DNA from: an uncultured Fibrobacterota bacterium
GTDB taxonomy: Bacteria > Fibrobacterota > CAYVZU01
Reading direction: 5' to 3'
Length of the DNA: 64,000 nucleotides
Assembly: GCA_964455935.1 (NCBI GenBank)
Contig: CAYVZU010000006.1
Span: 1,505-65,504, forward strand
This document shows positions 35,922-58,001 of the stretch, piece after piece. The first letter of the stretch is position 1. Every line of letters starts with the position of its first letter. The notes beneath the pieces were generated by a model. That model did not search any database and was not told the DNA's origin. It was given only the letters and a program-made list of their open reading frames with translations. The translations under genes and the position numbers were made by a program.

Positions 35922-36525
35922 GAGGTTTGGTCCGCCCATTCCTGGACCAGCGCGCGAAGCCGGACGGCCTCACGATGAATGGCCGAAATGCCGGTCCTTT
36001 CGGGTACCATGCAATAATCGGCGAGCGCTTTGTAAAAGAGGGATATCCTCCTTGGCTGGCTGGCGATATCAGTCCCTCTCCGGGTTTTTGATTCGATACA
36101 GAGTATCTGCGATCCGTTGCGCATTCGGAGCAGAAAGCTGTTTCAGAAAGGGTATAACTGCGGTTTCGCTCCCAAGCATCACAACCGCTTCCATTCCTGT
36201 TTTGGGATGCAGGCGTACCAAGTCGCTTCCGTGAAACGGCATGCAAATTCCCCCGAACCTTGCCTTCCTGCAGGTCGCAGTCAATGCTGCCTTGCGGAAA
36301 AAGAATCGCCATAGGTGGAGTGAAATGAAAAAGCTCATTGTTGAGCTTGTAGCGCGGCCCGCCCACGAGGTAGACCGACAGGAACGCGGCCGAGATTGGT
36401 ATGGAGGCTGTTTCGACCCGCACCATATCGGTTTGGTCTTCGTGACGGCAATGATATCGGGAAATTGGGACGAAATCAAGCAATTGTCCGTGCGTGCGCC
36501 GGGCCCATGCGCCAGCATGGGCCAA
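35897..36525 (-). pseudogene. Possible decayed AraC-type regulator (cupin arm domain only, at least 2 frameshifts, no HTH)
   Basis: Three overlapping minus-strand frames each carry a plausible segment: HCRHEDQTDMVRVE..YLVGGPRYKLNNELFHFTPPMAILFPQGS, then FHGSDLVRLHPKTGMEAVVMLG..IADTLYRIKNPE, then RRISLFYKALADYC. No single frame is intact. Confidence 0.3.
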
Positions 36526-36656
36526 AAGCTAAGGAAAATTCATATCTTCGTAGACATATCATCTTGTTACCGGAAAAATAATATGGCATATTTTAGACGA
36601 TTCTGAATACCTGTTCAAAGTATTAGTTGCAGGCTCACCCCATCAAGGTAAAATCC

Positions 36657-37064
36657 ATGCCCAATATTGAGAGCTTGACAGTTGAAAAGTGCAAAGGGTT
36701 GGACCCTCGCATGTTCGCCGTGAATCACGGAGCCGGCGAAAAATTGCCCGCTGCGATTGCGGCCATGCTCGACCCCGTGAACAAGGACGCCATTCATTAT
36801 TACGACAAGGACAAAACCGTGATGCCGGAATTGCACTACCATAAGTGCGATGAATACTGGATGTGGACCAAAGGAAGAACCAGGCTCACCCTGCGTCTTC
36901 CGGACGGACGCAGCGACACCTTCGAAATCGGCCCCGGCTGGGTGGCATACCTGGTGCGAGGCCTTGAACATAGGCATGAGCCGCTGGAAGACTGGGCTTG
37001 TTACGAATTTCAAAGCGAATATCGCGAAGGATGCAGTGGGATTCATCTCCATAGAAACCCATAA
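36657..37064 (+). CDS. Cupin-domain protein (metal-binding type)
   Basis: HYHKCDEYWMWTKGRTRL (HxHxxxE) and GPGWVAYLVRGLEHRH. ATG 36657. Confidence 0.7.
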   Translation: MPNIESLTVEKCKGLDPRMFAVNHGAGEKLPAAIAAMLDPVNKDAIHYYDKDKTVMPELHYHKCDEYWMWTKGRTRLTLRLPDGRSDTFEIGPGWVAYLVRGLEHRHEPLEDWACYEFQSEYREGCSGIHLHRNP

Positions 37065-37080
37065 CAGGAAGGAGTCTACA

Positions 37081-38454
37081 ATGGCGACATTTGGAAAGGC
37101 TGAGATTCGGAACCTGACGAAGGCGGTTGAAAGCGGGTGGTTCTGCGATAAGCGCGGCGGATTCATGGACCAGTTCCGCTCCGACTTCGCGCGTGATCTT
37201 GAGGCGAAACATGCAGTTACCGGCGCCACCGCCATGCTTCTTATGCAGGCCATCCCCGGGGCCCTCGGCATCGGTGCCGGAGATGAAATCATCGTTGATA
37301 CGGTTGTGCAGTTCCACGCGATTGCGTGTCTCCACAACAATATTGTCCCGGTATGGGCCGATATTCGCCCGGACAATTTTCTCATGGACCCGGCGTCCGT
37401 TGAGAAAAAGGTCACCAAGCGCACAAAGGCGATCTGGGTCACTCATCTTTGGGGCTTCCCCGCCGAAGTCGACAAGCTGCGCAAGATCGCCGACAAGCAT
37501 GGAATCTATCTGCTCGAAGATTGCGCGCACGCCCTGTTCGCGAAATACAAAGGCAAATTTCTGGGCAACTGGGGACATGTCGGCACGTATTCCTTCAATA
37601 TGGGAAAGCAGTTGCCCACCGGTGAAGGCGGAATGGCAATTACCAGCGATGACAAGATCGCATTCGAGCTCAACCGCAGAATCATTTTCGGTGAGAGCCC
37701 GGAAGTGCTGTCGTCCAATTATCGCATGACGGAATTGCAGGCCGCGATCGGTGTGGAACAGCTCAAGAAGGTGCCGGGCTACCTCAAAACATTCACCGAA
37801 GGAAAAAAGATCCTCGATGCCGCAGTAGCGGGCTGTTCGTGGATCGACGAGCGCAAAGCGATTTCGGGAAGCACGGTGGCACCTTATATCTGGTCGTCCA
37901 TTTTCCGCGGCGAACGAAAAAACATCGACTACGGTGTTTTCAAGGCGGCCATGAAACAGGTCAATGGCGTGTTTGGATTCGGATTCACGCAGCGACCGGG
38001 ATATATGTACAACATTTTCCGAAACCCCAATGCCTATGGCGATAAAGGGTGCCCTTACAATTGCCATTTATACAAAGGCAATGTGGACTGGAAGGCCGGC
38101 ATGTGCCCCGTTTCGGAAGATGTGATTCCCCGGCTCATCAATACCAACAACATGCTTCACGACCTCAAGAAGATGAGGGAGAAGGCGAAACACCTGAAAG
38201 AAGCCATCAACCTGGCCGAAAGCGGCAACGTGAAGCCCCTGGAATACAGCGAGATCGAAAAGAAAATCCTAAAGACGGTCAAGGAACATGGGCAATTGGA
38301 GCCGATCGAAGTGATCTCCATATTCGATAAAAAGGGATGGGGTCATTTCGACGAGCACGGTATGTTCGCCATGATGGAAGGCCTGCGCGAACGCTTCCCG
38401 CTAAAACTGTCGCATGCCGGACCGCGGAAGTTCTCATTTCATGAATTGTCATGA
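37081..38454 (+). CDS. DegT/DnrJ/EryC1/StrS-family PLP aminotransferase with roughly 80-aa C-terminal extension
   Basis: AVTGATAMLLMQAI..GDEIIVDT..AIWVTHLWGFPA..LLEDCAHA..YSFNMGKQLPTGEGGMAIT (PLP Lys). SD AGGAAGGAG. Confidence 0.85.
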   Translation: MATFGKAEIRNLTKAVESGWFCDKRGGFMDQFRSDFARDLEAKHAVTGATAMLLMQAIPGALGIGAGDEIIVDTVVQFHAIACLHNNIVPVWADIRPDNFLMDPASVEKKVTKRTKAIWVTHLWGFPAEVDKLRKIADKHGIYLLEDCAHALFAKYKGKFLGNWGHVGTYSFNMGKQLPTGEGGMAITSDDKIAFELNRRIIFGESPEVLSSNYRMTELQAAIGVEQLKKVPGYLKTFTEGKKILDAAVAGCSWIDERKAISGSTVAPYIWSSIFRGERKNIDYGVFKAAMKQVNGVFGFGFTQRPGYMYNIFRNPNAYGDKGCPYNCHLYKGNVDWKAGMCPVSEDVIPRLINTNNMLHDLKKMREKAKHLKEAINLAESGNVKPLEYSEIEKKILKTVKEHGQLEPIEVISIFDKKGWGHFDEHGMFAMMEGLRERFPLKLSHAGPRKFSFHELS

Positions 38455-38471
38455 AAATGTTTACATGACAA
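38446..38471 (+). other. Hairpin overlapping the aminotransferase stop codon
   Basis: TTGTCATG-N10-CATGACAA (8-bp stem). The stop TGA is at 38452-38454. Confidence 0.5.
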
Positions 38472-38492
38472 AGGATTGCTTTGTCGAGCTGG

Positions 38493-38575
38493 GATGTCAT
38501 TTCCATCGCATGCGAGAAATCTTCCATGGTATGGGCGCAAGGATTTCTCCTCGATGGCACGTCGAAAATGACATC
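38493..38575 (+). repeat. Inverted-repeat element, copy 1 (nested 10+6+8-bp stems)
   Basis: GATGTCATTT/AAATGACATC (38493-502 / 38566-75), CCATCG/CGATGG (38503-08 / 38552-57), GAGAAATC/GATTTCTC (38514-21 / 38542-49). It shares TGTCATTTC, GAGAAATC and AAATGACATC with copy 2. Confidence 0.6.
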
Positions 38576-38691
38576 AAAAATTTGGGTCTCAATTACGATT
38601 GCGCCAACGCGCGTTTTTGCACCGGCAAGGATCCGGTTGAAGACCTGGAATCCAATGCGAAACACGCGGCAATGGATTTGGCGCAAAGTTG

Positions 38692-38721
38692 GCCCCCTCC
38701 CGGTTTCTTCCCCGAGGGGGC
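38692..38721 (+). other. Hairpin just upstream of the oxidoreductase gene
   Basis: GCCCCCTC-N14-GAGGGGGC. It ends 28 nt before ATG 38749. Confidence 0.45.
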
Positions 38722-38748
38722 AAAGACCTTAACTTCAAAGAGACAAAT

Positions 38749-39825
38749 ATGAAAAATGGAAGAATCGGCCTTGGCGTAATCGGCATGGGTCGAAGCAATA
38801 TGGCTTCGACCCTGACTCTTTTGGAAAAAGAACCCGGCCTGTGCTTCGAAATTCGCTCGGTTTGCGCGCTTCCCGCGGCGGACATCGAGGAAACGGCGCG
38901 CCAGTTTGGAATTCCCCACTGGACTGTCGATTACCGGGAGCTTGTGGCACGAAGCGATGTTGACGTCGTCTGCGTCTTCTCGCCCGACCACCTGCACGCG
39001 GAGCATTGTATTGCCGCCCTGGACGCCGGCAAGCACGTGGTGTGCACGAAGCCCATGGTTACGAAAATCGAGGACGCCGCACGGCTTGTTCGGCTTGTAA
39101 AGGAAAAGAAAGTCAAGTTCCTCGTAGGCCAAACCATGCGATTCGACAGGCAGTTCCTGGCGGCCAAACAACTTCATGATGATGGCGATCTTGGTGAATT
39201 GATTGCCCTTGAAAGCTATTACGTGCATGACATGCGGCCCGTTTTTCAGTCCACGCCATGGCGGCTGAAAGTGCCGCAGGACCTGATGTTTGGCGGGTGC
39301 GTACACTCGATTGACGTGATTCGCGCCTTTGGCGGAGACATCGAATCCATTCATGCGTTCGCGCAAAATGGCAATCTCACGAAGGAATATCCTATTCCCG
39401 ACAATTTCTTCGTCAACATCAAATTCAAATCCGGCGCAATCGGTCGGGTATCGGGTCTCTATGGGATCGTCCACCCCCCTACCCCAATGATGCAGTTTGG
39501 ACTTTACGGCACCAGGGGCAGCCTCCAGTCGGAATTCACGGATAACGAGCCTGGTCAAGTACGGGTGGTCCTGGACAAGCTTCCCGGCCATAAATCCATG
39601 GTCATGAATTTCGAAAAGGAAGCGGATCTAAGTTGCTATGGACATGGGGCGACTGTAATTCGCTACATGCGTCATTTTCAGGAATGTCTGGACAATGACA
39701 AGGATCCTTCGCCCGGCGTATTGGACGGGGCCAAATCCGTTGCCGCCGGAGTGGCGGCATGGGAATCGATCAGGACCGGTAAGGTCGTGGAAATTCGCGG
39801 CAATCTGGATCCGTTTCCGGGGTAA
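38749..39825 (+). CDS. Gfo/Idh/MocA-family NAD(P) oxidoreductase
   Basis: RIGLGVIGMGR, VDVVCVFSPDHLHAEH and AGKHVVCTKPM. Confidence 0.85.
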   Translation: MKNGRIGLGVIGMGRSNMASTLTLLEKEPGLCFEIRSVCALPAADIEETARQFGIPHWTVDYRELVARSDVDVVCVFSPDHLHAEHCIAALDAGKHVVCTKPMVTKIEDAARLVRLVKEKKVKFLVGQTMRFDRQFLAAKQLHDDGDLGELIALESYYVHDMRPVFQSTPWRLKVPQDLMFGGCVHSIDVIRAFGGDIESIHAFAQNGNLTKEYPIPDNFFVNIKFKSGAIGRVSGLYGIVHPPTPMMQFGLYGTRGSLQSEFTDNEPGQVRVVLDKLPGHKSMVMNFEKEADLSCYGHGATVIRYMRHFQECLDNDKDPSPGVLDGAKSVAAGVAAWESIRTGKVVEIRGNLDPFPG

Positions 39826-39830
39826 ACCGA

Positions 39831-41591
39831 ATGACAACCAAAGCATCCCTTTGGACCGTGGTTCGCGCAATTTGGCAGCACTCTGGCAAATCGCGCAGAT
39901 TGATACCGCTTCAGTTCGTCATTCTTACCATTGACGCCATGATGCAATCCCTTGTCCCGGCTGTTCTGGGTTATGTCGTCAATCAATTGCTTAAAGACCC
40001 GCAGCAATTCGTCAGTGAGCAGCTGCTCTGGCTTTCCGGAGCCGCAATTCTCGCCGCAGCGGTGTTTTACGCCATCGCGGTGACGCAGCACTATCTGGGA
40101 CAGAAGATCGGGGCCCTGGCCCTGATCGGCGTTCAATCGGAACTGTACCGGCATCTGCAGCGGCTTGGCGCCGATTTTTATCAGCGAACGCACGTGGGCG
40201 AAGTTACACAACGCCTTACCGCCGATACAAGCCGGGGCGTACAGGAATTGTACGGGCTGCTGATTATGCTGTATTGGAGCTCGGTCCTTCTGCTTTCGTC
40301 CATCGTGATCATGGCCCGTCTGAATCTGAAAATGCTGGCCGTCTTTCTTTCGATCCTGGCGTGTTTGTTTGCAACTTCCCGTTTCGTATTGCCGATACTG
40401 CGCCGCCTTCATCGCGAGGCCCAGGACGAAATGGGCCGTATCAATGCACGAATGACCGAGGACATCGCCTCGATCAGCCTGATTCAAGCGTATGCAAGGG
40501 AAGCGTCAACCTTTGAGAACGTAACACAATTATGGCATTCGTTCCTCCACAAGACGCTGCGCAGCAGGCTTGTGGGTGTTTTCTACAGCGATATTATCAA
40601 TACCTTCATGACCTTTCTTGGCCCCATGGCCATGCTCTTCCTGGGTTCGCTTCTGATCAGCGATACGTTTAGCGTCGCCACATTGGTTGCGTTTTATGCG
40701 TATTGGCGCAGCTCTGCATGGCCGGCGTCGAGTCTGGTTCAAACACTGGCCCAGCTTTTTGCCTCCCTGGCGAGTTTCGATCGCATCATGGAGTTTTTCA
40801 ACGAAAGCCCGACCGTTCAGGATCGGCCGGACGCGCGTGAGGCTGTGCTCAAAGGCACAGTCGAGTTCGATCACGTTTGGTTCCGCTATCCCTTGGGGAA
40901 CAACGAGTACGTGATTCGGGATCTTTCGTTTCGCGTGAATCAGGACCAGAGCTTGGCCATTGTCGGCGAAAGCGGGGCCGGTAAATCCACGATTCTTCAG
41001 ATGCTCTTGCGTTTTTATACCCCTCAGCAGGGCGAGATCCGGGTGGACGGCCAAAACGTTCTCGATCTGAAACTGGCCAGCCTTCGGGAGCAGGTTGGCG
41101 TTGTCATGCAGGAGACAATCATTCTGAGCGGAACGATTCGTCACAATATGCTGCTGGCCAAACCCGATGCCGGCGATCCCGAAATTATCGCCGCCCTTGA
41201 CGCGGCGGAAGCCTGGACCTTCATCAAGGAGATGCCGGACAAGCTCGACACAATCCTGGGTGAACGCGGCACAAGGCTTTCCGGAGGCCAAAAGCAGCGG
41301 CTTGCCATTGCCCGTGTTCTGCTTAAAAACCCTCCCATCGTTGTCCTGGACGAGGCCACATCCTCGCTGGACAGTGTGACCGAGAAGAGGATTCAGGATA
41401 CTATGAAACGGCTGTTCCGGGACCGCACCTCCATTGTCGTGGCGCACCGGCTTTCTACGGTCATCGACAGCAGTCAGATTCTCTTTCTTGAAAAAGGACA
41501 GGTACTCGCGGTCGATAGCCACGCCGAACTCGTGGAGACCTGTCCGGCATACCGGGAGCTTTGCCTTAAACAGCAGTTGGTGGCTGCGTAG
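39831..41591 (+). CDS. ABC exporter, fused permease/ATPase (MsbA-like half transporter)
   Basis: Six-TM N-terminal half. GESGAGKST, LSGGQKQRLAIAR and VVLDEATSSLD. Confidence 0.9.
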   Translation: MTTKASLWTVVRAIWQHSGKSRRLIPLQFVILTIDAMMQSLVPAVLGYVVNQLLKDPQQFVSEQLLWLSGAAILAAAVFYAIAVTQHYLGQKIGALALIGVQSELYRHLQRLGADFYQRTHVGEVTQRLTADTSRGVQELYGLLIMLYWSSVLLLSSIVIMARLNLKMLAVFLSILACLFATSRFVLPILRRLHREAQDEMGRINARMTEDIASISLIQAYAREASTFENVTQLWHSFLHKTLRSRLVGVFYSDIINTFMTFLGPMAMLFLGSLLISDTFSVATLVAFYAYWRSSAWPASSLVQTLAQLFASLASFDRIMEFFNESPTVQDRPDAREAVLKGTVEFDHVWFRYPLGNNEYVIRDLSFRVNQDQSLAIVGESGAGKSTILQMLLRFYTPQQGEIRVDGQNVLDLKLASLREQVGVVMQETIILSGTIRHNMLLAKPDAGDPEIIAALDAAEAWTFIKEMPDKLDTILGERGTRLSGGQKQRLAIARVLLKNPPIVVLDEATSSLDSVTEKRIQDTMKRLFRDRTSIVVAHRLSTVIDSSQILFLEKGQVLAVDSHAELVETCPAYRELCLKQQLVAA

Positions 41592-41668
41592 GGAAATCGA
41601 AAAGACGCCTGGTAACGGATTCGCGCATTCGTCAAGGCAACGCTCCGCCCGTTGGAGGAACGCTACTC

Positions 41669-43021
41669 ATGAAATGTACTCCCCGACAGGAAAGGTTGAT
41701 CAAGCTCACCTTTCTGGATTATCAGCAGAATTCGGAGTTTTTAAAGGCGCCTCTTATCCTTAACAAGGCCGAGGGCCTGTATTATTGGGATGCGGAAGGC
41801 AAACGCTATTTCGATGCCATTGGCGGGGTTTTCGTGGCCGTTCTTGGGCACCGTCATCCACGCCTGATGGAAGCAATGCGCCAGCAGATGGAAAAAATCA
41901 CCTTCACGCCTCCCCTTCACGGGATTTCGGATGTCGCCCTGGACTTCATCGAGAAGCTCGGCTCGATCACACCCGGCAATCTCAACTACATCAAGCCCTA
42001 CAGCGGCGGATCGGAGTCGACCGAGTCGGCCATGAAGTTTGTGCGCCAGTACTTCAAACAAACGGGGCATCCAAACAAATACAAATTCGTGAGTTGCTAT
42101 CACGGCTATCATGGGGCCACGTTCGGCGCCATGGCAGCCAGCGGAACCGGCAAACGAAAATCGAAATTCGAACCCCAAATGGGTGGTTTTGTCAAAACCT
42201 TTATGCCCCAACACTATCGTGACCATTTTCCATCGTGGGAACAGGCCAATCGCTTCGCCGCACAAATGATTGAAGATGCGATCATCGCCGAGGACCCCGA
42301 TACCGTGGCGGGGATCATTATTGAGCCCATCTCCAACACGGGAGGGATTGCCACTCCCACTGACGAGTTCTTCCGCCTGTTGCGAGCCGGTTGCGACCGC
42401 CTCAATGTAATGCTTGTATTCGACGAGGTCATTACGGGTTTTGCGCGCACCGGCAACATGTTTGCCGCGCAGACATTTGGCACCACGCCCGATATTATCT
42501 GCGCGGGTAAGGGGCTTTCCAGCGGCGCCATTCCATTGGGAGCCATGATGGCGCGGGACGACATGGGCGACGCGTTTTTTGGGCCCGAGCAGGACGAGGT
42601 GCAATTCGCGCACGGCCACACCTTTGCGGGAAACCCTCTGGCAAGCGCCGTGGGGATTGCCGTGATCGACGAAATCCGGGAAAAGAACCTCGACAAGAAA
42701 GCCCAGGCCCTAGGCCAATATTTATCGGACAAGCTGAAAGGCTTGAAAAAATACGGCGTGGTGCGCGAAATTCGCGGCAAAGGCATGATCCGCGGTGTCG
42801 AACTCGTGAAGGACACCCAATCAATGGAGCCCTATAACGAGCTGGGGCTCGCGCTTAAAAAGACGAGTCTCAAGAACGGTCTTATCATGCGCGTCAACCC
42901 CAATTGGTTTGCGGTGGCGCCGGCCCTTATTTCAGAGAAATCCGATATTGACGAAATGACGGAGCTGATTGAGAAAAGCTTGAAGGATGCATTGGCGGCT
43001 ATGAAGGGGACGAAATTATGA
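41669..43021 (+). CDS. Class-III (omega) PLP aminotransferase
   Basis: YFDAIGGVFVAVLGHRHP, YHGYHGAT and VFDEVITGFARTG. 450 aa. Confidence 0.9.
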   Translation: MKCTPRQERLIKLTFLDYQQNSEFLKAPLILNKAEGLYYWDAEGKRYFDAIGGVFVAVLGHRHPRLMEAMRQQMEKITFTPPLHGISDVALDFIEKLGSITPGNLNYIKPYSGGSESTESAMKFVRQYFKQTGHPNKYKFVSCYHGYHGATFGAMAASGTGKRKSKFEPQMGGFVKTFMPQHYRDHFPSWEQANRFAAQMIEDAIIAEDPDTVAGIIIEPISNTGGIATPTDEFFRLLRAGCDRLNVMLVFDEVITGFARTGNMFAAQTFGTTPDIICAGKGLSSGAIPLGAMMARDDMGDAFFGPEQDEVQFAHGHTFAGNPLASAVGIAVIDEIREKNLDKKAQALGQYLSDKLKGLKKYGVVREIRGKGMIRGVELVKDTQSMEPYNELGLALKKTSLKNGLIMRVNPNWFAVAPALISEKSDIDEMTELIEKSLKDALAAMKGTKL

Positions 43022-43197
43022 TTCGGGTTAGGACCTGGAGGTTGAAACCAGAACGTTAAAGACCGCTTTTGAGAAAGAGGGGCTTGTCAAGCTCCAAAGC
43101 AAGACGGCGGATTGGCCTGGAGAATCAATGTTTTTCGCGGAAATTGGAAAACGCCCGTAAAGCGATACGCGGAAATGAGCGAAATGGACGCCCTGAA

Positions 43198-44238
43198 ATG
43201 AAAGCACTCGTAAAATTCGGTCAGAAGCCCGGCGAAGTGGAAATTCGCGATGTGCCGGAGCCGGCATGCGGGCCGGGTGCTGTTGTAATTGAGGTGAAAG
43301 CGGCATCGATATGCGGCTGGGATATTGAAATGTGGAAACACGCGATGGCCAACCCGGTGGCCGTGCCCGTGATTCAGGGCCATGAATTCTGCGGTGTGAT
43401 CAAGGAAACAGGGCCGGGCACGAACGGATGGAATACAGGCGATCGTGTTACCTGTGAAACATCGGCGGTCGTTTGCGGCAAATGCTTCTGGTGCCGCAAG
43501 GGTGATTATCAAATTTGCCCAAATCGCAAGGGGTTTGGGTACGGTGTGGACGGCGCATTCGCCAAATACGTAATCGCCCGACAGGAGATCCTGCACAGAA
43601 TCCCACCTTCCCTCTCGTTTGAAGAAGCGGCGCTGACCGAACCCTTTTGCGTGGTGCACCACGCGCTGGCCGACCGCATCCGTATTGCCCCTGGCGATGT
43701 GGTCGTGATTGTGGGACCAGGTCCCATTGGCCTGATTTCCCTTCAAATGGCAAGGCTGATGGGGGCCAGCGCCACCTTGCTTGTGGGCACAAGAAGCGAC
43801 CGCAGCCGTATGGCACTTGCGCAAGAACACGGCTGGGCCGATCGAATTGCTGAAGTCGAAAATGAAAATCCTGTGGAAGCAGCAATGCAAATGACCGCGG
43901 GCCGAGGCGCCGATGTGGTGGCCGACTGCGCTGGAAATTCCGCCGCCCTTCATACGGCGCTCGAAAGCGTGCGCCCCTATGGACAGGTTGTGAAAATCGG
44001 CTGGGGACCAAAACCCTACGACCGCAGCCTCGACACGCTGCTGCGAAAATCAGCCACGTTGTCAGGCACCTTTGGCCACAACTGGCACAACTGGGAAGCC
44101 ATATTGAAGATGTTCGAGGCGGGGCGGCTTGACCCCAAATCGCTGATTTCTGATGTGCTGCCGCTCCGCCGTTGGCTGGAAGCCTTTAAAAGGCTGGAAT
44201 CCGCCAAAGCCGTGAAGATTGTGTTAATACCGGAATAG
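43198..44238 (+). CDS. Zn-dependent medium-chain dehydrogenase (sorbitol/threonine-DH-like)
   Basis: ICGWDIEMW, QGHEFCGVI, CGKCFWCRKGDYQIC and VVIVGPGPIG. ATG 43198. Confidence 0.85.
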   Translation: MKALVKFGQKPGEVEIRDVPEPACGPGAVVIEVKAASICGWDIEMWKHAMANPVAVPVIQGHEFCGVIKETGPGTNGWNTGDRVTCETSAVVCGKCFWCRKGDYQICPNRKGFGYGVDGAFAKYVIARQEILHRIPPSLSFEEAALTEPFCVVHHALADRIRIAPGDVVVIVGPGPIGLISLQMARLMGASATLLVGTRSDRSRMALAQEHGWADRIAEVENENPVEAAMQMTAGRGADVVADCAGNSAALHTALESVRPYGQVVKIGWGPKPYDRSLDTLLRKSATLSGTFGHNWHNWEAILKMFEAGRLDPKSLISDVLPLRRWLEAFKRLESAKAVKIVLIPE

Positions 44239-44241
44239 CCC

Positions 44242-45441
44242 ATGAACAGCATAGTCACGAAGATCCGGCCCAAGAATATCGCGGAGAATTTGTGGAGGCT
44301 TGTCCTGGTGCCAAGCCCCACCGGGAACGAAAAAGCGGCCGCGATTCTGTATGGCAAACTCCTGCGGCAGGCTGGCGCGCGGGTTGAACTTATCGATACA
44401 ATCCCCCAAAGCCCCATTGTGGTTGGCAGACTAAAAGGCGATCGTCCGGGAAAGGTGATTCAGCTTGCTGGACACATCGACCACATTGCCGTTGATCACG
44501 CCCCGCCTTCCCGTAACCGGAGCATCATTTCAGGCCGCGGGAGCGCGGACATGAAGAATGGCCTGGCAGCCATCCTCGAGATCGTACGCGTTCTGAAAAG
44601 CACCGGAAGCAAGTTCCCCGGCGAAGTCCTTGTTACGGTATATGGGCGCCACGAAGCGCCCCTCGGTCAGTCGGAATGTCTCTTAGAGTTGATCCGTAAG
44701 AAGATCAAGGGAGATGCGGCAATTATCTTCGAAACAGGATTTGCGGCCGAGGGCAAAGCGGTCTTGGGCGGAAAAGGACAAAGCATTTGGAACATCACGA
44801 TTCGCAGAGCCGGGAAATCCTGCCATGAGCTGAGCTATCCAAAAAACGGTCCGGACCTGCTTTTGGGCGTTCAAAATGTTCTTGCGGGTCTTAAGCGGCG
44901 CAGCGATACCTTAAGGCAATCCAAGCAAACACGGCAGGAACACGAATCCCTTTTCATCGGCCAGATTCATTATGGTGATTTTTACAATCGAATGCCCCTG
45001 AGCTGCACAATCCAGGGTACCCGGCGCTGGCTCGCCAACAAGACCTTCTTGGACGTTCAGCACGAAATGGATGCCCTGCTCAAGAATCTCCGCCTTCCCA
45101 AAGACGTCTCGGCCGAGTGTGCGTGGACCTTCGTTGGAGAATCCTTCGACATGGACAAAACCGAACCCATTTTGTCGGCTCTCACAGCGGCCTATCGGGA
45201 CGTCATGGGTCGAAGGATGGCCTTCGGCCGGCTTGCCACCGTTGTCGATGCCAACAGATTGGTCCCGTTGGCCAATGTTCCCACGGCACTGATCGGTTTT
45301 GATACGCAATACGCTCACGCCGACCATGAATTTATACGTGTTAGAAAGCTGGAGAATCCATGTCGATTTGCGCTGCTTACCATACTAAACTACCTCGAAG
45401 CTAAAGCGGACCGCCCCTTGGCCTCCAAGAGGTCTGCATGA
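44242..45441 (+). CDS. M20-family metallopeptidase/deacylase (ArgE/DapE-like)
   Basis: SPTGNEKAAA, LAGHIDHIAV and GRGSADMKNG. It starts 3 nt after the previous gene. Confidence 0.8.
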   Translation: MNSIVTKIRPKNIAENLWRLVLVPSPTGNEKAAAILYGKLLRQAGARVELIDTIPQSPIVVGRLKGDRPGKVIQLAGHIDHIAVDHAPPSRNRSIISGRGSADMKNGLAAILEIVRVLKSTGSKFPGEVLVTVYGRHEAPLGQSECLLELIRKKIKGDAAIIFETGFAAEGKAVLGGKGQSIWNITIRRAGKSCHELSYPKNGPDLLLGVQNVLAGLKRRSDTLRQSKQTRQEHESLFIGQIHYGDFYNRMPLSCTIQGTRRWLANKTFLDVQHEMDALLKNLRLPKDVSAECAWTFVGESFDMDKTEPILSALTAAYRDVMGRRMAFGRLATVVDANRLVPLANVPTALIGFDTQYAHADHEFIRVRKLENPCRFALLTILNYLEAKADRPLASKRSA

Positions 45442-46454
45442 AAGCCCTGGTTTGGCATGGCGGACTCAATTTCCGAATGGGCGAGGCTGCCGAACCGAAA
45501 GCGGAAGCGGGTCGAATTGTCGTGAAAGTGGAGGCGGCGGCCATCTGCGGGTCCGACTTCCACATGGACGACTTCGGGGCCAAGCCTCCGTTGATCCTGG
45601 GCCATGAAGCGGCTGGAACCGTCCACGAAATCGGTGCGGGCACAAGTGGCTTCAAAATCGGGGACCGGGTGGCCTTGAATCCGGTTCAGGTATGCGGACA
45701 ATGCGCCTGCTGCAAAAAGGGATATTCGCACCTGTGCATGAATTACCGGCATTTGGGCGACGCCGGGATTCCCGGCGGCTGGGCCGAATACGTCGCCATT
45801 GACGCGGCAAACGCTTTTCCGATTCCGGATCATCTGGAATTTGCCGCCGCAAGCCTGGCCGAACCGCTGGCCGTATGCTACGAGAGCTTTCAACGCGCGC
45901 AACTCAACCCCGGAGATTCCGTGCTAATCCTCGGAGACGGCCCCTTTGGGTTTCTTCACGCGCAAATCGCGCGCGCGCTGAAGGCCGGCCTCATTCTTGT
46001 CGCAGGCCATTATGACAAACGACTCAAACGAATTGCCAAAGCGACCGGCGCACTGGTGTGCAATACCCGGTCCCAGGACCTGGAAAGCATAATCGCCGGC
46101 GAAATCGGAGCCGCCGGGATGGACCTTGTAATTGAGGCCACGGGGGCGGGCGCCTCACCCAATATTGGATTACGAGCTCTACGCCCAAGGGGTGTCCTGG
46201 TGGTCTTCAGCTATATCTGGAAACCCCAACCGCTGGAAATGGGGCTTATCCACATGAGAGAACTAAGCGTATTGGGTTCATGCCGCTCTCTTGGCGCCTA
46301 CGGCAAATGCATCGAGCTGATGAATCAGAAGAAGGTGGATACCAGCCTGCTGGTGGATCTGCAGGTTTCGCTTGAGGAATACGGCAAAGCAATTGACCAG
46401 CTACGGAATCGGAAAGAGGACATTTTCAAAGTGGTGTTTCGGCCTTGGCCATGA
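45438..46454 (+). CDS. Zn-dependent medium-chain dehydrogenase (second copy)
   Basis: ICGSDFHM, LGHEAAGTV, CGQCACCKKGYSHLC and LILGDGPFG. 4-nt overlap with the M20 gene. Confidence 0.85.
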   Translation: MKALVWHGGLNFRMGEAAEPKAEAGRIVVKVEAAAICGSDFHMDDFGAKPPLILGHEAAGTVHEIGAGTSGFKIGDRVALNPVQVCGQCACCKKGYSHLCMNYRHLGDAGIPGGWAEYVAIDAANAFPIPDHLEFAAASLAEPLAVCYESFQRAQLNPGDSVLILGDGPFGFLHAQIARALKAGLILVAGHYDKRLKRIAKATGALVCNTRSQDLESIIAGEIGAAGMDLVIEATGAGASPNIGLRALRPRGVLVVFSYIWKPQPLEMGLIHMRELSVLGSCRSLGAYGKCIELMNQKKVDTSLLVDLQVSLEEYGKAIDQLRNRKEDIFKVVFRPWP

Positions 46455-46521
46455 TTCCGACTGTCTTGTTGATCTGCGGACAGGCGGATTTTGGCCAAGA
46501 CCCGGACGGAAAGGAAATGGC

Positions 46522-47163
46522 ATGAACGACATCATTATTCTTTCCTCAGACCCCCACGCTTTCGAGATGGCCCATATCATTGAACGAATCAACCAGGACA
46601 AGAAGACATGGAATATCCTCGGGTATGTGCTATACACCAAAGAGGAAGCCGATCGACATACGGAGCAGAATGGATATCCGGTTCTTGGCACCTTCGATGT
46701 CCTGGCGAAATATCCAAAAGCGAGCATTATCCCCAGAGAGAGCGGTCCAATAAAGGGAATTGATATTCCGCGAGAACGACTTGCCACCATCGTGGACCCG
46801 TCCTGTTTTGTGGCCCGCACGGCCTCCATCGGAGTCGGATGCGTCATTTTCCCCAATTGCTTTATCGGGCGGGGCGCCAAGGTGGGAGATTGGGTCTTCA
46901 GCTTGAGCGGAAGCATTATCAATCATGATTGTGTTCTGGGAGATTGTACCACCCTTTGCAGCGGCGTAACACTGGCCGGCCACGTTTGCGTCGGAGAAGG
47001 ATGCTACCTGGGCCAGGGCTGCAATGTCAAGCAGTTCATGAAAATCGGCAAAGGCAGCCTTCTCGGAATGGGATCTGTCGTGACCCGAGATGTGCCCGCC
47101 AACGCGGTCATGGTGGGAAATCCGGCACGGAAAATGCGCGACCGGATCGAATACGAGAAATAA
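46522..47163 (+). CDS. Left-handed beta-helix sugar N-/O-acetyltransferase (NeuD/PglD-like)
   Basis: N-terminal Rossmann-like IIILSSDPHAFEM, then hexapeptide repeats IGVGCVIFPNCFIGRGAKVGDWVF..GVTLAGHVCVGEGCYLGQGCNV..VMVGNPAR. Confidence 0.8.
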   Translation: MNDIIILSSDPHAFEMAHIIERINQDKKTWNILGYVLYTKEEADRHTEQNGYPVLGTFDVLAKYPKASIIPRESGPIKGIDIPRERLATIVDPSCFVARTASIGVGCVIFPNCFIGRGAKVGDWVFSLSGSIINHDCVLGDCTTLCSGVTLAGHVCVGEGCYLGQGCNVKQFMKIGKGSLLGMGSVVTRDVPANAVMVGNPARKMRDRIEYEK

Positions 47164-47180
47164 AACAAAAGAATGTGACT

Positions 47181-48230
47181 ATGCGAATCGGTCTTGTTGG
47201 AATCTCAGCCCTGTACTGGCCTATTACCGCCGCCAATTACCTTTCACGCAGAAGCGACGCTACGCTTGCGGCGTTTGCGACCTTAGGAGTGAGCGCGAAA
47301 AGGATCAAGGATGTTCTAGGGTTGTCTCCGGAGGAATACGCCGCACAATACCGGGCCAAGCAATTCAGCGATGTCGACGAAATGATTAGGAACGAAAAGC
47401 TGGACGCGCTCATCATCTGCACGCCGCATACCGAGCACGCAAAATGGGTTCGGCGCGTGGCCAAATACAGGCTGCCGCTGTACATGTTCAAGACATTTGC
47501 GACAGAGAATCGCGATTCGCAGGAAATTGTTCGTCTGGGCAGGAAATATCAAATACCCATCGCGGTCGGGCCAAGCGCGCGGCACCTGCCCGCCATAGTG
47601 GCGGTGAAGGATCTGATCAATTCCGGCGCCATTGGGAAGCCCTTCTCCATGCACCTCTGCCACCACCACGGCGTGATCGACTGTTTTCACAAAACCGATT
47701 GGTACCGGGAGGGGAAGGAAGGCGGACCGGAACTGTCGCTGGGATGGTATCTGACCGATCTCGTCCTCCATTTTCTGGGCACGGATGTGGCCAGGGTCTC
47801 CGCGGAATATGGCAACTTCAATTCGAAAGGCAGTCCCTTCATGGATTGTGGAAAACTCGCAATGCGCATGAAAACGGGCGCCATGGCATCCTGCAATATG
47901 TACTTCTGCCATCGTTTCCCCTATCCTTCCTGGGAGATGGATATATCGGGTCCCAATGGCGTTGTATGCATAAAGCAGGAAGGAACGGACCCCGGGAAAA
48001 CCGTTGTGAAGCTGTTTACAGCCAAAGGATGCAGCCTTATTCCGTTGCCGGATTCCGCTCCGCATTGGGAAATGTTCTGGGTTGATGATTTCCTGGCGAA
48101 ACGAAAGCCAGCGCTGGATGCGGGCTTTGCGGCTTTGATTACAGAAATCACCCTGGCGGCAAGGGAATCGGCGCGCAAAGGAAAAACCATGGAGCTTTCT
48201 CGTGTCAAAAAATCCACCAACGTTAAGTGA
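47181..48230 (+). CDS. Gfo/Idh/MocA-family oxidoreductase (second copy)
   Basis: MRIGLVGIS and LDALIICTPHTEHAKW. The C-terminal alpha/beta domain has the typical length. Confidence 0.75.
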   Translation: MRIGLVGISALYWPITAANYLSRRSDATLAAFATLGVSAKRIKDVLGLSPEEYAAQYRAKQFSDVDEMIRNEKLDALIICTPHTEHAKWVRRVAKYRLPLYMFKTFATENRDSQEIVRLGRKYQIPIAVGPSARHLPAIVAVKDLINSGAIGKPFSMHLCHHHGVIDCFHKTDWYREGKEGGPELSLGWYLTDLVLHFLGTDVARVSAEYGNFNSKGSPFMDCGKLAMRMKTGAMASCNMYFCHRFPYPSWEMDISGPNGVVCIKQEGTDPGKTVVKLFTAKGCSLIPLPDSAPHWEMFWVDDFLAKRKPALDAGFAALITEITLAARESARKGKTMELSRVKKSTNVK

Positions 48231-48271
48231 AATCAATAATGCTCAAACCCAATAACAAGGAGAGGTGCCAT

Positions 48272-49366
48272 ATGTTAACGGCGATGCGACTCATGTTTCT
48301 TCTTCCAGTTCTGTTTGTCCCATGCGCGTTTGGATACTCACTCTGGTCCGTCCCGACCAACGATTCGGTTTACACCGACAGCCAAGCTGTGGAGCTGGGA
48401 GTCAAATTCAGGTCCGATTCCGCGGGCACGGTCACCGGGATCCGATTCTACAAAAATAGGCTGAGTACGGGAACGCACGTCGGAAATCTCTGGACGCGCA
48501 CAGGCACCTTGCTTGCAAGCGCCACGTTTTCCAGCGAGAGCGACTCGGGCTGGCAGCAGGTATTTTTCTCCACGCCTGTTTCAATTTCCGCCGATACCGT
48601 CTATGTAGCCTCCTATTTCTGCCCCAATTATTATATAGCGACTAATGACTTCTTCACTGAAACCAAAGGCGCACCCCCTTTGCATGCTCTGGATACTATT
48701 TCCGCGGCGGGCAATGGGGTTTATACCTATAGCACCTCAAGCGCTTTTCCCGTAGCATCCTTCCGGGGGACCAATTACTGGGTGGATGTTGTATTTTCAG
48801 CAAACAGCCAGCCAACGCAAGCCGCCAGTATTTCCTCCCCGGATAGCGTGACGATCCAGGCTGGCGAAACCGTCAACTACCAAATCAGTATGAATCCAGG
48901 CAGCGAAAGCGGGACGCCAATCTACTCAATTGTAAGCGGGCCGGCGTATCCAACTCTCTTGCTGGGGTCAAGTTTGCTTGCGGGCCCAGTAGCGGAAACA
49001 CCGGCCCCCAGGGAGGACACGGTTGTCATACACTGGGTGCTAGGCGGCCAAAATGGAAACTTCAACTTGCGCATACAAGTTCAGCCATCGGCCCGGATTG
49101 GAGAAAGGACATCAACCGTTCAGGCTCTTGGACTCCGGGCAGAATCGAAGCGCGATGGAATTGTGTTTCAGGTAAATTTGGGCGCGCCCGGAGAATACAA
49201 GTTGGTGGCCTTTGATGTCACCGGTCGCCGAGCTTGGTCCCATTCGGCCGCTGGCAAGCCCGGAACGTTCAAAGTTTTTTGGCCCAATGCGCCCGCCGGA
49301 GTGTATGCTATTGTAATGAAAAGCAACAATCAAAGGATCATACGAAACGTTCTCCTGGCCAGATAA
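48272..49366 (+). CDS. Secreted DUF4082-like protein with T9SS-type C-terminal domain
   Basis: VELGVKFRSDSAGTVTGIRFYKN..HVGNLWTRTGTLLA..SGWQQVFFSTPVSISADTVYVASYF. C-terminal YKLVAFDVTGRRAW..GVYAIVMKSNNQ. SD AAGGAGAGG. Confidence 0.7.
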   Translation: MLTAMRLMFLLPVLFVPCAFGYSLWSVPTNDSVYTDSQAVELGVKFRSDSAGTVTGIRFYKNRLSTGTHVGNLWTRTGTLLASATFSSESDSGWQQVFFSTPVSISADTVYVASYFCPNYYIATNDFFTETKGAPPLHALDTISAAGNGVYTYSTSSAFPVASFRGTNYWVDVVFSANSQPTQAASISSPDSVTIQAGETVNYQISMNPGSESGTPIYSIVSGPAYPTLLLGSSLLAGPVAETPAPREDTVVIHWVLGGQNGNFNLRIQVQPSARIGERTSTVQALGLRAESKRDGIVFQVNLGAPGEYKLVAFDVTGRRAWSHSAAGKPGTFKVFWPNAPAGVYAIVMKSNNQRIIRNVLLAR

Positions 49367-49428
49367 ATGGCCGATGGAATTCATCAACCAAGGCAACGAT
49401 TCCGTTTCCAGCACCAGACCAGGAGAGT

Positions 49429-49494
49429 TGTCATTTCGGCGGGTCTTCGTGGAGAAATCCTTTCATCTGGTCCATGAAAATGCGCGAAATGACA
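49429..49494 (+). repeat. Inverted-repeat element, copy 2
   Basis: Perfect 10-bp arms TGTCATTTCG / CGAAATGACA (49429-38 / 49485-94). The interior contains GAGAAATC (49452-59) and CATGAAAATG (49473-82), both also present at the copy-1 locus. Confidence 0.6.
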
Positions 49495-49561
49495 TCCCGG
49501 GCTGAAAGGTTGCCAGCCAATTTTCCCAGCCAGGAAAGAAGCCAAACGGCGGGAGGATAAA

Positions 49562-50365
49562 TTGCGTTCCAAAGAGAAGATGCCAGACATCAGCGGCCTT
49601 CAGCTTTTCGACAGCTGTGTGACGCTCGGGAAAATGGTCTTTTCGGGAGTCCCGGAATATCTCACCACTCGCAACATTCTGTCGATCATGGATCATTACA
49701 AAATCCATGAGGCACTGGTGCATGATCACCATGCACGCATTACCTATCCGCGCGAGCACGGTAACGATAGGCTGCTCAAATCCATCCGAAAAATGCCGCG
49801 CCTGCACCCGGTCTGGGTGCTTGAACCACCCAAACGCATTGGCGCCAAGGCAGCCCAAGAGGTGGTGAACCGAATGCTCGATCACAACGTAAAAGCGGCG
49901 CGACTGCGCATGAAGGTGGCGCCTCCCCTGCTTTGGCTTTGGAGCGACCTTCTCAATGCTCTCGACGAGCACCGCATCCCGTGCTTTTTGGATTTTGGCC
50001 AGACCACCACATGCGGCAATCTCAGCGAAAACGAGGTAAACGGAGTGCGGGAAATTGCTCTTGCCTATCCCCGGCTTCCGCTGATCCTGTCCCACGTTCT
50101 TGGCGGACTTGGTATTAATTACGCCATTGTTCCACTCATTAAGCGCATTCCCAATCTGCGCATCGACATTGCGGGGATTCTTGAATTCTGGCGAGAAGTG
50201 GCTTTGGATGTGGGACCCGAGCGCGTTCTTTTCGCCAGCGCCATGCCGTTTGTCGACCCCGGAATTCTTATTTCCAATGTCCAATACGCGCGCGGGCTCA
50301 ACGAAGGGGCCAAACGCATGATTTGCGGGGATAACCTCCGTAAGCTATTGGGAGGCGTACGATGA
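49562..50365 (+). CDS. Amidohydrolase-2-fold (TIM-barrel) protein, probably lacking the N-terminal HxH metal ligands
   Basis: Paralogue of the next gene. Where that gene has IDGHIHIG, this one has LFDSCVTLG. The TTG start has a GGGAGG SD 5 nt upstream. Confidence 0.65.
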   Translation: MRSKEKMPDISGLQLFDSCVTLGKMVFSGVPEYLTTRNILSIMDHYKIHEALVHDHHARITYPREHGNDRLLKSIRKMPRLHPVWVLEPPKRIGAKAAQEVVNRMLDHNVKAARLRMKVAPPLLWLWSDLLNALDEHRIPCFLDFGQTTTCGNLSENEVNGVREIALAYPRLPLILSHVLGGLGINYAIVPLIKRIPNLRIDIAGILEFWREVALDVGPERVLFASAMPFVDPGILISNVQYARGLNEGAKRMICGDNLRKLLGGVR

Positions 50366-51198
50366 GCAGAATCCTTGAAAACTGGAAAAAAGGGCTGGGG
50401 ATGCCCGATGTCCTGGTGATCGACGGTCACATACACATTGGCGATTGGCCGCACGCAGCCACGTTTTCCGATGTAGAGGAAGCCGTCAAGGAGTCCCGAG
50501 CGTATCTCGATGCGAACGGCGTGGATGCTTTTTGGGCGGTCAGCGGCGGCTATAACATCGGGGCGGGAGCTGATTATCGATTGGGAAACGATTTCTTATT
50601 GGCGGTCTGGAAGAAGATGCCCGACCGGATGATCCCTTTCCTCTGCATTAATCCCAATGACAGCAGGATCGCTATCGTTCGTGAACTCGAAAGAATGTAT
50701 AAGGCCGGGGTCCGCGGTATCAAGCTGATCAACGACTATCAGGAGAATTATCCGGGCGACGGTCCCAATCTGGCAATCGTGTATGAGTTCGCCAATGCAC
50801 ACACCATGCTTGTATTCAATCATGCATGGACCAGGCCCGTGATTCTGAAGATTTCGGAGCAATTTCCCGGCACTGATTTTATTTTCGCGCACTACAACGG
50901 CGGGGGCAGTTGGCACGATGAGGTGCTGAAGAAGAGGGACAACGTTCACATGAACATCTGGAGCCTGGGAAATATGGGATGGCTCAATCGTGGGTTGAAA
51001 GAGGTGGGCGCGCACAAATTCATGATGGGCTCCGATGGGTTTCTCAACGCCATGTCCGTGGGCATTGGTCCCGTAGTGTTTGCGCCGATTTCGGACCAGG
51101 AAAAGCGCTTGATTCTTGGTCTGAATGCAACCCGCCTGCTGGACAAGGTTGGCGCATTGCCGCCTGCCATCAAAAATAAATTCGGCAAGATGCTGTAG
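50362..51198 (+). CDS. Amidohydrolase-2-family metal-dependent hydrolase
   Basis: VLVIDGHIHIG, FIFAHYNGG and MMGSDG. 4-nt overlap with the previous gene. Confidence 0.75.
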   Translation: MSRILENWKKGLGMPDVLVIDGHIHIGDWPHAATFSDVEEAVKESRAYLDANGVDAFWAVSGGYNIGAGADYRLGNDFLLAVWKKMPDRMIPFLCINPNDSRIAIVRELERMYKAGVRGIKLINDYQENYPGDGPNLAIVYEFANAHTMLVFNHAWTRPVILKISEQFPGTDFIFAHYNGGGSWHDEVLKKRDNVHMNIWSLGNMGWLNRGLKEVGAHKFMMGSDGFLNAMSVGIGPVVFAPISDQEKRLILGLNATRLLDKVGALPPAIKNKFGKML

Positions 51199-56923: not shown

Positions 56924-56926
56924 GCG

Positions 56927-57979: not shown

Positions 57980-58001
57980 CTCACACCTTCTCTTTGCCGC
58001 T

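Follow-up and report, generated by a model that had tools for sequence, protein, structure and literature searches.

Gene content and layout of the block

The DNA analysed here is a 64,000-nt stretch of a contig from an uncultured Fibrobacterota bacterium (hereafter the window), and the element in question is a block of metabolic genes at positions 36657–51198. The listing of open reading frames (ORFs), combined with Pfam scans, showed 13 consecutive plus-strand genes (Table 1) with gaps of 16, 294, 5, 77, 176, 3, −4, 67, 17, 41, 195 and −4 nt in gene order. A first-pass annotation, made from the sequence alone, had described this region as a co-directional island of 14 genes in which, three longer spacers excepted, the gaps span −4 to 77 nt. 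Orientation and spacing are as described, but the number of genes is 13, and the three large spacers contain no recognisable gene remnant. Remnants of accessory genes (Kelch, phosphotriesterase, DUF3830, URO-D, GNAT, substrate-binding protein/permease, PfkB and TIM-barrel genes) were found neither in these spacers nor in the spacer downstream of the block. The Rfam scan gave no element anywhere in the window.

The proposed order of protein families was confirmed with Pfam, except that the match of the cupin is weak and that the type IX secretion system (T9SS) tag of the DUF4082 protein found no match (see below). The Pfam-confirmed families carry no curated equivalog assignment, and all 13 proteins scored below every curated NCBIfam cut-off, in agreement with the earlier remark that the block corresponds to no known pathway. 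The catalytic motifs are intact in the window, namely the lysines of the two aminotransferases, the zinc (Zn) sites of the two dehydrogenases, the metal ligands of the M20 deacylase and the HxH motif of the second Amidohydro_2 protein. Genes for a nucleotidyltransferase, 4,6-dehydratase, cyclase, glycosyltransferase, flippase or polymerase, reported as conspicuously missing in the first reading, were indeed found neither in the block nor in any scanned ORF of the window, and the same applies to genes for inositol-phosphate synthase and phosphatase.

Upstream of the block, on the opposite strand, parts of an AraC-type regulator could be traced. Regulator residues 18–95 align at 36223–36441 and residues 125–191 at 35921–36112 in another frame, while residues 192–286 (HTH_18) remained unmatched in the window by tblastn. 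Judged from these alignments, the AraC gene of the window is a frameshifted, truncated remnant of the divergent regulator found with related copies (see below). With a regulator that is decayed and lacks its helix-turn-helix (HTH) part, the copy in the window is a rearranged and probably deregulated derivative. A glycoside hydrolase (GH) family 38 alpha-mannosidase gene (32773–35865) abuts the AraC break, and its adjacency to the block is therefore secondary, resulting from the rearrangement that cut the AraC gene.

Table 1. Position, role and basis of assignment of the genes of the block and of two features upstream of it
Feature	Position	Strand	Role	Basis
Cupin, 135 aa	36657..37064	+	core, module A	
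Long DegT/DnrJ/EryC1 pyridoxal phosphate (PLP) aminotransferase, 457 aa (long DegT)	37081..38454	+	core, module A	Pfam, 197 bits
Gfo/Idh/MocA oxidoreductase 1 (Gfo1)	38749..39825	+	core, module A	Pfam
MsbA-like fused ATP-binding cassette (ABC) exporter, ABC_membrane+ABC_tran (transmembrane domain, TMD, then nucleotide-binding domain, NBD)	39831..41591	+	lineage-specific insertion	Pfam and NCBIfam
Class-III (omega-type) aminotransferase (AT3)	41669..43021	+	core, module B	Pfam, 338 bits
Zn-dependent medium-chain dehydrogenase/reductase (MDR) 1 (ADH1), threonine/polyol-dehydrogenase type	43198..44238	+	core, module B	Pfam
M20 (ArgE/DapE-like) deacylase	44242..45441	+	core, module B	Pfam
Zn-dependent MDR dehydrogenase 2 (ADH2)	45438..46454	+	core, module B	Pfam and PDB
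NeuD/PglD-type left-handed beta-helix N-acetyltransferase (LbH)	46522..47163	+	accessory	hexapeptide
Gfo/Idh/MocA oxidoreductase 2 (Gfo2)	47181..48230	+	core	Pfam
DUF4082 protein, secreted	48272..49366 (alternative GTG start 48227)	+	lineage-specific insertion	DUF4082, 162 bits
Amidohydro_2 subunit a (AH2a)	49562..50365	+	core, module A	Pfam, residues 94–264 only
Amidohydro_2 subunit b (AH2b)	50362..51198	+	core, module A	Pfam, full-length match
AraC-family regulator, decayed remnant	35921..36441	-		tblastn with AraC proteins of L088 and L089
Sigma-70-like promoter match, upstream of cupin	36551..36579	+		weak consensus match, 9/12 positions

A conserved two-module cassette

Loci were fetched around homologues of the M20 deacylase, the long DegT and the ABC protein (numbered with the prefix L), and the proteins of the window were mapped onto them by tblastn. 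The ten-gene order cupin-DegT-Gfo1-AH2a-AH2b-Gfo2-AT3-ADH1-M20-ADH2 was complete in three loci (L090, L099 and L103), and L098 and L109 have the same order in incomplete form, owing to a contig end or the lack of a cupin hit. Nine of the ten genes were present in a locus from a metagenome-assembled genome (MAG) of Kiritimatiellae (L001). The identity of cassette proteins to those of the window ranged from 46 to 79%. The cassette is conserved and recurs in unrelated bacteria, and is not a chance juxtaposition; 13 genes on the same strand, ten of which are syntenic elsewhere, are far beyond what chance would give. By this comparison of gene order, the block is a rearranged copy of a conserved cassette built of two modules. 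It differs from the other copies in that its AraC gene has degenerated, its genes stand in another order and it has gained three genes by insertion (the MsbA-like exporter, LbH and the DUF4082 protein).

Module A consists of the cupin, the long DegT, Gfo1 and AH2a/AH2b, often together with DUF3830, a phosphotriesterase-family protein, a Kelch propeller or URO-D, and it was found alone behind a divergent AraC gene in L088/L091, L089, L094, L111 and L113. Module B consists of AT3, M20 and one or more ADHs, usually with a metallo-beta-lactamase-fold protein, and occurs alone in Acidobacteriota and other MAGs. A third architecture, seen in seven loci (L096, L097, L106, L108, L117, L118 and L123), combines the long DegT with a Gfo1-like protein, Gfo2, a CE4 deacetylase, an Eis-like GNAT and a distant M20.

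The first-pass annotation had reasoned that a block of unrelated pieces would fall apart in close relatives. The cassette order proved to be conserved, but the modules also occur separately. In a rival reading the block has no single pathway: it would be a mosaic in which two or three separate operon fragments, namely module A, module B and the inserted genes, were joined by rearrangement and serve different substrates. The separation of the modules in many genomes would fit such a mosaic, as would the state of the window copy, with its three large spacers, decayed regulator and three foreign genes. However, at least six independent loci (L001, L090, L098, L099, L103 and L109) carry modules A and B jointly, with the gene order kept and little space between the genes, and both modules use the same logic of deacylation, transamination and redox chemistry on amines. 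We therefore consider a mosaic of this kind rather improbable.

A variant of module B was observed on a Sedimentisphaerales contig (L003, 4446–14861), where the trio of M20, Zn-ADH and metallo-beta-lactamase-fold protein lacks the class-III aminotransferase. An octopine-dehydrogenase-family gene and an MttB-family methyltransferase gene occupy the place where the aminotransferase would sit, and the neighbours are AraC, GH172, SSF and GH43 genes. This arrangement may represent an alternative way of removing nitrogen from a related substrate.

Exporter, acetyltransferase and DUF4082 protein

The exporter was a central part of the earlier interpretation, in which the island makes, or remodels, a metabolite and exports it with a transporter of its own. 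In its fullest form this interpretation holds that the block turns a common sugar or inositol into a free metabolite (a poly-aminated polyol, an aminocyclitol or an iminosugar-like compound), with N-acetyl protection and ABC export, and the start of the exporter-type ABC gene only 5 nt after Gfo1 is in its favour. However, neither the ABC exporter nor the DUF4082 protein was present in any of the 72 non-redundant other loci with a long DegT, and other ABC matches (27–37% identity) occurred only in five loci without a long DegT. The closest homologues of the exporter (53–57% identity) adjoin a PAP2 gene, or AraC and another ABC half-transporter, or ParA/sigma-54 genes. Since it is absent from every other copy and its homologues lie in unrelated loci, the exporter is not a component of the cassette, and the combination of biosynthesis and export is weakened by this as well as by the catabolic neighbours described below.

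The exporter scored 374 bits with an MsbA-related model (cut-off 780) and 321 bits with the MsbA lipid A model (cut-off 602). At L171 (10001–12362), a 54% homologue of the window exporter is followed by a PAP2 phosphatase gene. The pairing of ABC and PAP2 genes is familiar from lipid A export and dephosphorylation, and by this analogy there are hints that the exporter is a housekeeping lipid flippase that landed in the operon. A reading of the block as a GnnA/GnnB-MsbA lipid A system was rejected, as the long DegT family has AraC, importer and kinase genes around it and reaches no equivalog.

With regard to the acetyltransferase, LbH reached 144.8 bits with TIGR03570 (NeuD/PglB/VioB; cut-off 160.8), and a single homologue (48% identity) was found at a long-DegT locus, L144, which also has a cupin and an Eis-like GNAT next to it. 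Other copies have GNATs within the cassette or adjoining it: Acetyltransf_1 in L099 and L103 and the Eis-like Acetyltransf_9 in L096, L097, L106, L117, L118, L123 and L144, while an Antibiotic_NAT gene lies at the edge of L089. As different acetyltransferase families are found in the different copies, N-acetyl transfer is a recurrent accessory function that is supplied by non-homologous enzymes.

These acetyltransferases also bear on the idea that the block provides detoxification or tolerance, by acetylating, modifying and pumping out aminoglycoside- or iminosugar-like inhibitors met by polysaccharide degraders, which might at the same time serve as a nitrogen source. Acetyltransf_9 and Antibiotic_NAT are families known for aminoglycoside modification, and the window has its LbH acetyltransferase together with an efflux-type ABC gene. 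Such a role is nevertheless very improbable in our view, given that ten metabolic enzymes go far beyond the needs of resistance, that the exporter is not conserved, that none of the acetyltransferase types is universal, and that the importers and PfkB kinases of related loci imply use of the compound as a carbon source.

The N-terminus of the DUF4082 protein looks like a signal peptide. The annotation of this protein as T9SS-secreted could not be upheld: the whole protein gave no NCBIfam match to a T9SS tail at E≤0.01, its last 138 residues gave no Pfam match at E≤1, and a T9SS tag was rejected as there was no match to Por_Secre_tail.

Neighbouring genes at related loci

The genes that surround the cassette and its modules in other genomes suggest that a compound is imported and broken down, and not that one is made and secreted. 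A divergent AraC gene, of which the window retains the remnant, is present in L001, L088, L089, L094, L111 and L113. In L097, 41 nt separate the start of the long DegT from a preceding importer composed of SBP_bac_1 and two BPD_transp_1 proteins, the binding protein of which resembles oligosaccharide-binding proteins; the same type of importer lies upstream on the same strand, one or two genes from DegT, in L096, L106 and L108, and a permease pair is found directly upstream of DegT in L148. In L103 and L109, genes for a PfkB kinase and an AP_endonuc_2 TIM barrel lie directly ahead of the full cassette; in L090 and L098 only the TIM-barrel gene is found there, and one related locus has a class-II aldolase in addition. 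In total, AraC genes were seen in at least six related loci, CUT1 importers in at least five and PfkB in two.

Among 119 neighbouring ORFs of 27 long-DegT loci, the commonest family was BPD_transp_1 (10 ORFs, with two more in a separate scan), followed by SBP_bac_1 and Acetyltransf_9 (four each, with two more each), then URO-D, CE4/DUF2334 and AP_endonuc_2 (three each), and PfkB, Peripla_BP_4, ABC_tran and AraC-type HTH (two each). Glycosyltransferase and nucleoside diphosphate (NDP)-sugar families were not among the 25 commonest families in these flanks. Module B neighbours include GH28, GH127, GH116, GH20-like, GH2, GH43 and GH172 genes, SSF and GntP transporters, a PIG-L deacetylase and PocR-AraC regulators, and module A of L088 lies near a GH123 gene. 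Thus, related loci carry importers, kinases, deacetylases and glycoside hydrolases, and the regulator of the cassette is of the AraC type that is typical of substrate-induced catabolism, which speaks against the biosynthetic interpretation.

The long DegT aminotransferase

The long DegT constitutes, on the evidence of its sequence conservation, a distinct and highly conserved subfamily of 457 aa. More than 120 homologue clusters are 67–85% identical to it over the full length, some of them named by their source as Lentisphaerae, Planctomycetota, Chloroflexi and Spirochaetia, and the protein of the Kiritimatiellae MAG is 77% identical. The mean column identity of the alignment is 78%. The window protein has the catalytic Lys176 in SFNMGK, and conservation extends to a Cys-rich insertion (C324-x3-C328-x13-C342) and to the roughly 95 aa of a C-terminal tail. 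In the AlphaFold model (pLDDT 83) the tail forms three to four helices and a beta hairpin, while the Cys-rich loop is of low confidence. The helical tail is predicted to be winged-helix-like, and it is missing from ordinary DegT enzymes. Apart from the low-confidence insertion (residues ~300–345) and the tail (360–457), C83, C148 and C252 are further conserved cysteines. It is possible that the conserved cysteines form a metal or Fe-S site.

A fold search placed the long DegT nearest to Fic25, the metagenomic sugar transaminase 7b0m and BtrR/RbmB. The BtrR/RbmB matches had template modelling (TM) scores of 0.68–0.70, and Fic25, 7b0m and perosamine synthases scored alike. Several of the nearest folds act on non-nucleotide substrates, but nucleotide-sugar aminotransferases score nearly as well, so that the substrate class is not settled by the folds. 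The best NCBIfam hit was the LegC family, with 127 bits against a cut-off of 420. A literature search with the PDB codes 7B0M and 7B0D found no relevant paper.

Other enzymes of the cassette

The cupin matched Cupin_5 with 20 bits, under the cut-off, and Cupin_2 also only weakly. Its motif H60-x-H62-x3-E66 ... H105 is invariant in 14 orthologues, and a profile built from these 14 showed weak matches to oxalate decarboxylase and cupin-type phosphoglucose isomerase and no match to FdtA/QdtA. Among 1.84 billion cluster representatives there were 29 relatives at E≤0.001 and one at E≤1e-30. The long DegT is carried by 34 loci of at least 6 kb, the window itself being counted among them, and in 12 of these the cupin is directly upstream of it. 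By these searches, the cupin is an orphan metal-binding family tied to the cassette.

Gfo1 has orthologues of 72–75% identity next to the long DegT, and among solved structures it is closest to levoglucosan dehydrogenase (6a3f), inositol dehydrogenases and DgpA. The protein scored 125 bits with the IolG model (cut-off 355). The UDP-GlcNAc 3-dehydrogenase model gave 83 bits (cut-off 450). Gfo2 orthologues (46–52% identity) were found in 15 of the same 34 loci. AT3 has its catalytic Lys281 in GKGL, its orthologues are 68–79% identical, and its nearest solved structures are amine/omega-transaminases. In both ADHs the catalytic and the structural Zn motifs are present, and their nearest relatives are L-threonine 3-dehydrogenases, sorbitol dehydrogenase and the IolM model; the first two are also the best solved relatives of ADH1. 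The IolM scores were 220 bits for ADH1 and 169 bits for ADH2 (cut-off 450).

The ADH2 gene overlaps the M20 stop codon by 4 nt in the window, follows M20 directly (0–4 nt overlap) in L085–L087 and lies within about 110 nt of it in L003. The metal-ligand motifs of M20 are conserved across 40 homologues and intact in the window. More than 120 clusters are 44–56% identical to this protein, with named sources in Acidobacteriota, Kiritimatiellae, Planctomycetes-type bacteria, Spirochaetales and Anaerolineae. The PDB gave only distant DapE matches, and the score with the ArgE/DapE family model was 78 bits (cut-off 217). A profile scan of contigs with the M20 alignment was swamped by the generic M20 pattern, true orthologues being found in only 3 of 80 loci.

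The two Amidohydro_2 proteins are of different kinds. AH2b has a DGHIH motif and invariant His and Asp residues in 15 orthologues, whereas the HxH position of AH2a reads FDSCVTLG in the window and in 13 orthologues, so that AH2a is probably non-catalytic. In L090 (12609–14237) the two are fused as a single 542-aa protein. The lack of HxH in AH2a together with this fusion suggests a heteromer in which one subunit is catalytic and the other degenerate. The AH2a and AH2b genes overlap by 4 nt in the window. The best solved match of AH2b was 3cjp (E=5.5e-05), followed by LigW-type decarboxylases, all very distant, and its AlphaFold model, made without an alignment, was too poor for a fold search (pLDDT 43.6).

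Comparison with known pathways

The neighbouring Gfo/Idh/MocA and DegT genes resemble NtdC/NtdA (kanosamine), GnnA/GnnB (UDP-GlcNAc3N) and WbpB/WbpE (UDP-diacetamido uronic acid), with which the cassette would share a hydroxyl-ketone-amine chemistry on a sugar ring and, in some copies, an N-acetyltransferase. The cassette differs from these systems in having no equivalog match, a distinct long DegT and no NDP-sugar, glycan-assembly or phosphatase context, and it is surrounded instead by importers, kinases and AraC regulators, a context that suggests operation in reverse, towards deamination. The WbpB/WbpE/WbpD logic put forward in the earlier annotation is not supported, as DegT and Gfo fall below the curated models and no nucleotidyltransferase, glycosyltransferase, flippase or polymerase was found in the window. 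The FdtA/B/C logic also has to be given up, since the cupin is not of the FdtA type; this assignment was rejected on its weak Cupin_5/Cupin_2 matches and the lack of a match to an FdtA/QdtA profile. What does stand is the view that the block does not build a glycan and that its substrate is an aminated sugar, polyol or cyclitol in free form, not bound to a nucleotide. This is probably correct, as NDP-sugar and glycosyltransferase genes are found neither in the window nor among the 25 commonest families of the related flanks.

The enzymes of 2-deoxystreptamine biosynthesis (BtrS/RbmB, BtrE/NeoA, BtrB/NeoB and BtrD/NeoL) belong to the same four families of DegT, Zn-ADH, class-III aminotransferase and deacetylase, and act on free cyclitol or pseudo-oligosaccharide amines. 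In contrast to their clusters, the cassette has no glycosyltransferase or resistance gene, and neither 2-deoxy-scyllo-inosose synthase nor inositol-phosphate synthase was found in the block, the scanned ORFs of the window or the related flanks. Moreover, the deacylase of the window is M20 and not PIG-L, and the cassette is spread over Kiritimatiellae, Lentisphaerae, Planctomycetota, Chloroflexi and Spirochaetia, where its surroundings look catabolic.

The enzymes of module B are in the same families as GabT1 and GutB1. The azasugar three-gene cluster consists of the GabT1 aminotransferase, the Yktc1 phosphatase and the GutB1 Zn-dehydrogenase (PMC8382821). Both systems would use an aminotransferase and a Zn-dependent polyol-type dehydrogenase on an amino-polyol, and module B could run in reverse; the difference is that the phosphatase is not in the block, M20 and a second ADH being present instead, and that module B lies beside GH and SSF genes.

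In favour of biosynthesis of a free aminated metabolite are the four shared aminoglycoside families (BtrS/BtrE/BtrB/BtrD), the overlap with the aminotransferase and dehydrogenase of the azasugar signature (PMC8382821), and the proximity of the long DegT fold to Fic25 and BtrR/RbmB, to which the recurrence of acetyltransferases in the cassette can be added. With the committed-step enzymes (cyclase, inositol-phosphate synthase and phosphatase) absent from block and window, and with the exporter and neighbourhood data given above, we regard this reading as unlikely.

Similarities to iol operons (IolG/IolE/IolC/IolJ, and IolG/IolM/IolN of Thermotoga) are that IolG is the best NCBIfam model for Gfo1 and IolM the first or second for both ADHs, and that related loci contain an AP_endonuc_2 TIM barrel, a PfkB kinase and in one case a class-II aldolase. 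However, the scores are far under the cut-offs (125/355, 220/450 and 169/450), so that equivalog-level matches to IolG and IolM were not reached; the two aminotransferases and the deacylase have no iol counterpart, and the window lacks IolE, IolD, IolB and IolC. The ArgA/ArgD/ArgE and DapD/DapC/DapE routes likewise combine an N-acyltransferase (of the LbH type in DapD) with a class-III aminotransferase and an M20 deacylase. In these arginine and lysine routes N-acylation stops the amino-carbonyl intermediate from cyclising. They differ from the cassette in that M20 scored 78 bits against a cut-off of 217, that the acetyltransferase is not constant, and that the partners here are sugar-type oxidoreductases. 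The enzymes thus fall into none of the well-characterised catabolic clades that had been considered in the first-pass annotation. A search of the literature on DegT, MocA and amino-sugar catabolism found no described pathway of this kind, and a search on DUF3830 found no paper at all.

Proposed function

Our preferred reading, which we hold with moderate confidence, is that the cassette is an inducible catabolic or assimilation pathway for an N-acetylated amino or diamino sugar or an aminocyclitol, and that it is rearranged and deregulated in the window. The catabolic direction is favoured by the neighbours of the cassette, i.e. the importers, kinases and AraC regulators. The pathway would convert an imported N-acylated amino compound to an ordinary sugar intermediate. 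M20, elsewhere also CE4 or PIG-L, would first remove the N-acyl group. DegT would then transaminate the ring (secondary-carbon) amine to a ketone, which Gfo/Idh/MocA would reduce, in a reversal of the oxidise-then-aminate logic of NtdC/NtdA or GnnA/GnnB. A second amine, of the omega or polyol type, would be turned into a carbonyl by AT3 and the carbonyl handled by the Zn-ADHs, the reverse of GabT1/GutB1. The metal cupin would isomerise an intermediate, the Amidohydro_2 heteromer would hydrolyse or open a lactone or keto intermediate, and a kinase, where present, would pass the product on to central metabolism. During conversion of one amine, the other may be protected for a time by the N-acetyltransferases (LbH in the window, GNATs in other copies), as in ArgD/ArgE and DapC/DapE chemistry, which would block cyclisation to an iminosugar.

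Several points weigh against a catabolic cassette. The only transporter in the block has the architecture of an exporter, the AraC gene of the window is a remnant, no importer or kinase was seen in the window, and the full-cassette loci are without adjacent importers. It is unusual for a catabolic pathway to include N-acetyltransferases, some biosynthetic operons are likewise under AraC control, and the same enzyme families build aminoglycosides and azasugars, so that the direction cannot be read from the families alone. Furthermore, the GH neighbours are heterogeneous, with the GH38 adjacency in the window stemming from rearrangement, many of the ORFs that flank module-A-only loci are unannotated and give no clue to the substrate, and none of the enzymes reached a curated cut-off.

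A more specific version of the catabolic reading, which we offer tentatively and regard as possible rather than probable, is that the cassette specifies a hitherto undescribed route on which an N-acetylated diamino sugar or aminocyclitol loses its nitrogens in two different transaminations, with no kinase inside the cassette. Candidate substrates would be bacillosamine-type and 2,3-diacetamido-type envelope sugars, galactosamine-type sediment sugars and inosamines. The long DegT, the orphan cupin and an obligate Amidohydro_2 heteromer would then be new subfamilies, and the route would have spread horizontally among anaerobic polysaccharide degraders.

Other features of the window

Outside the block, the plus strand carries at 20859–24851 a radical SAM gene resembling lysine-2,3-aminomutase, then two ATP-grasp genes that resemble D-Ala-D-Ala ligases, and a small GNAT gene. 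This set resembles ablA/ablB (N-acetyl-beta-lysine) with extra ligases and, by analogy, might make beta-lysine-containing compounds. Two B12-binding radical SAM proteins are encoded at 2995–4434 (minus strand) and 17946–20408 (plus strand), the second being unusually long (820 aa). A protein of the archaeo-eukaryotic release-factor-like (baeRF) family, encoded at 14059–15216 (minus strand), adjoins a 1355-aa PAS/GAF hybrid histidine kinase (9950–14017). At 55802–59472 (minus strand) CotH kinase-like, unannotated, DUF4956 and VTC-domain genes are clustered, a recurrent CotH/VTC association, and a 591-aa ORF at 28840–30615 (plus strand) has no Pfam match.

Significance

If the biosynthetic interpretation were true, the cassette would stand for a widespread new family of aminated, glycosidase-inhibitor-like metabolites. 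Under the catabolic reading, its meaning would lie in the nitrogen economy of soils and sediments, in which amino sugars are a large and slowly turned-over pool of organic nitrogen. To our knowledge, catabolic routes are known for only a few amino sugars. The cassette would then provide a new means of recovering carbon as well as nitrogen from amino sugars or aminocyclitols of unusual kinds, and it would give functions to several uncharacterised families, the proteins of interest being the long DegT, the M20 deacylase, the orphan cupin and the split Amidohydro_2.

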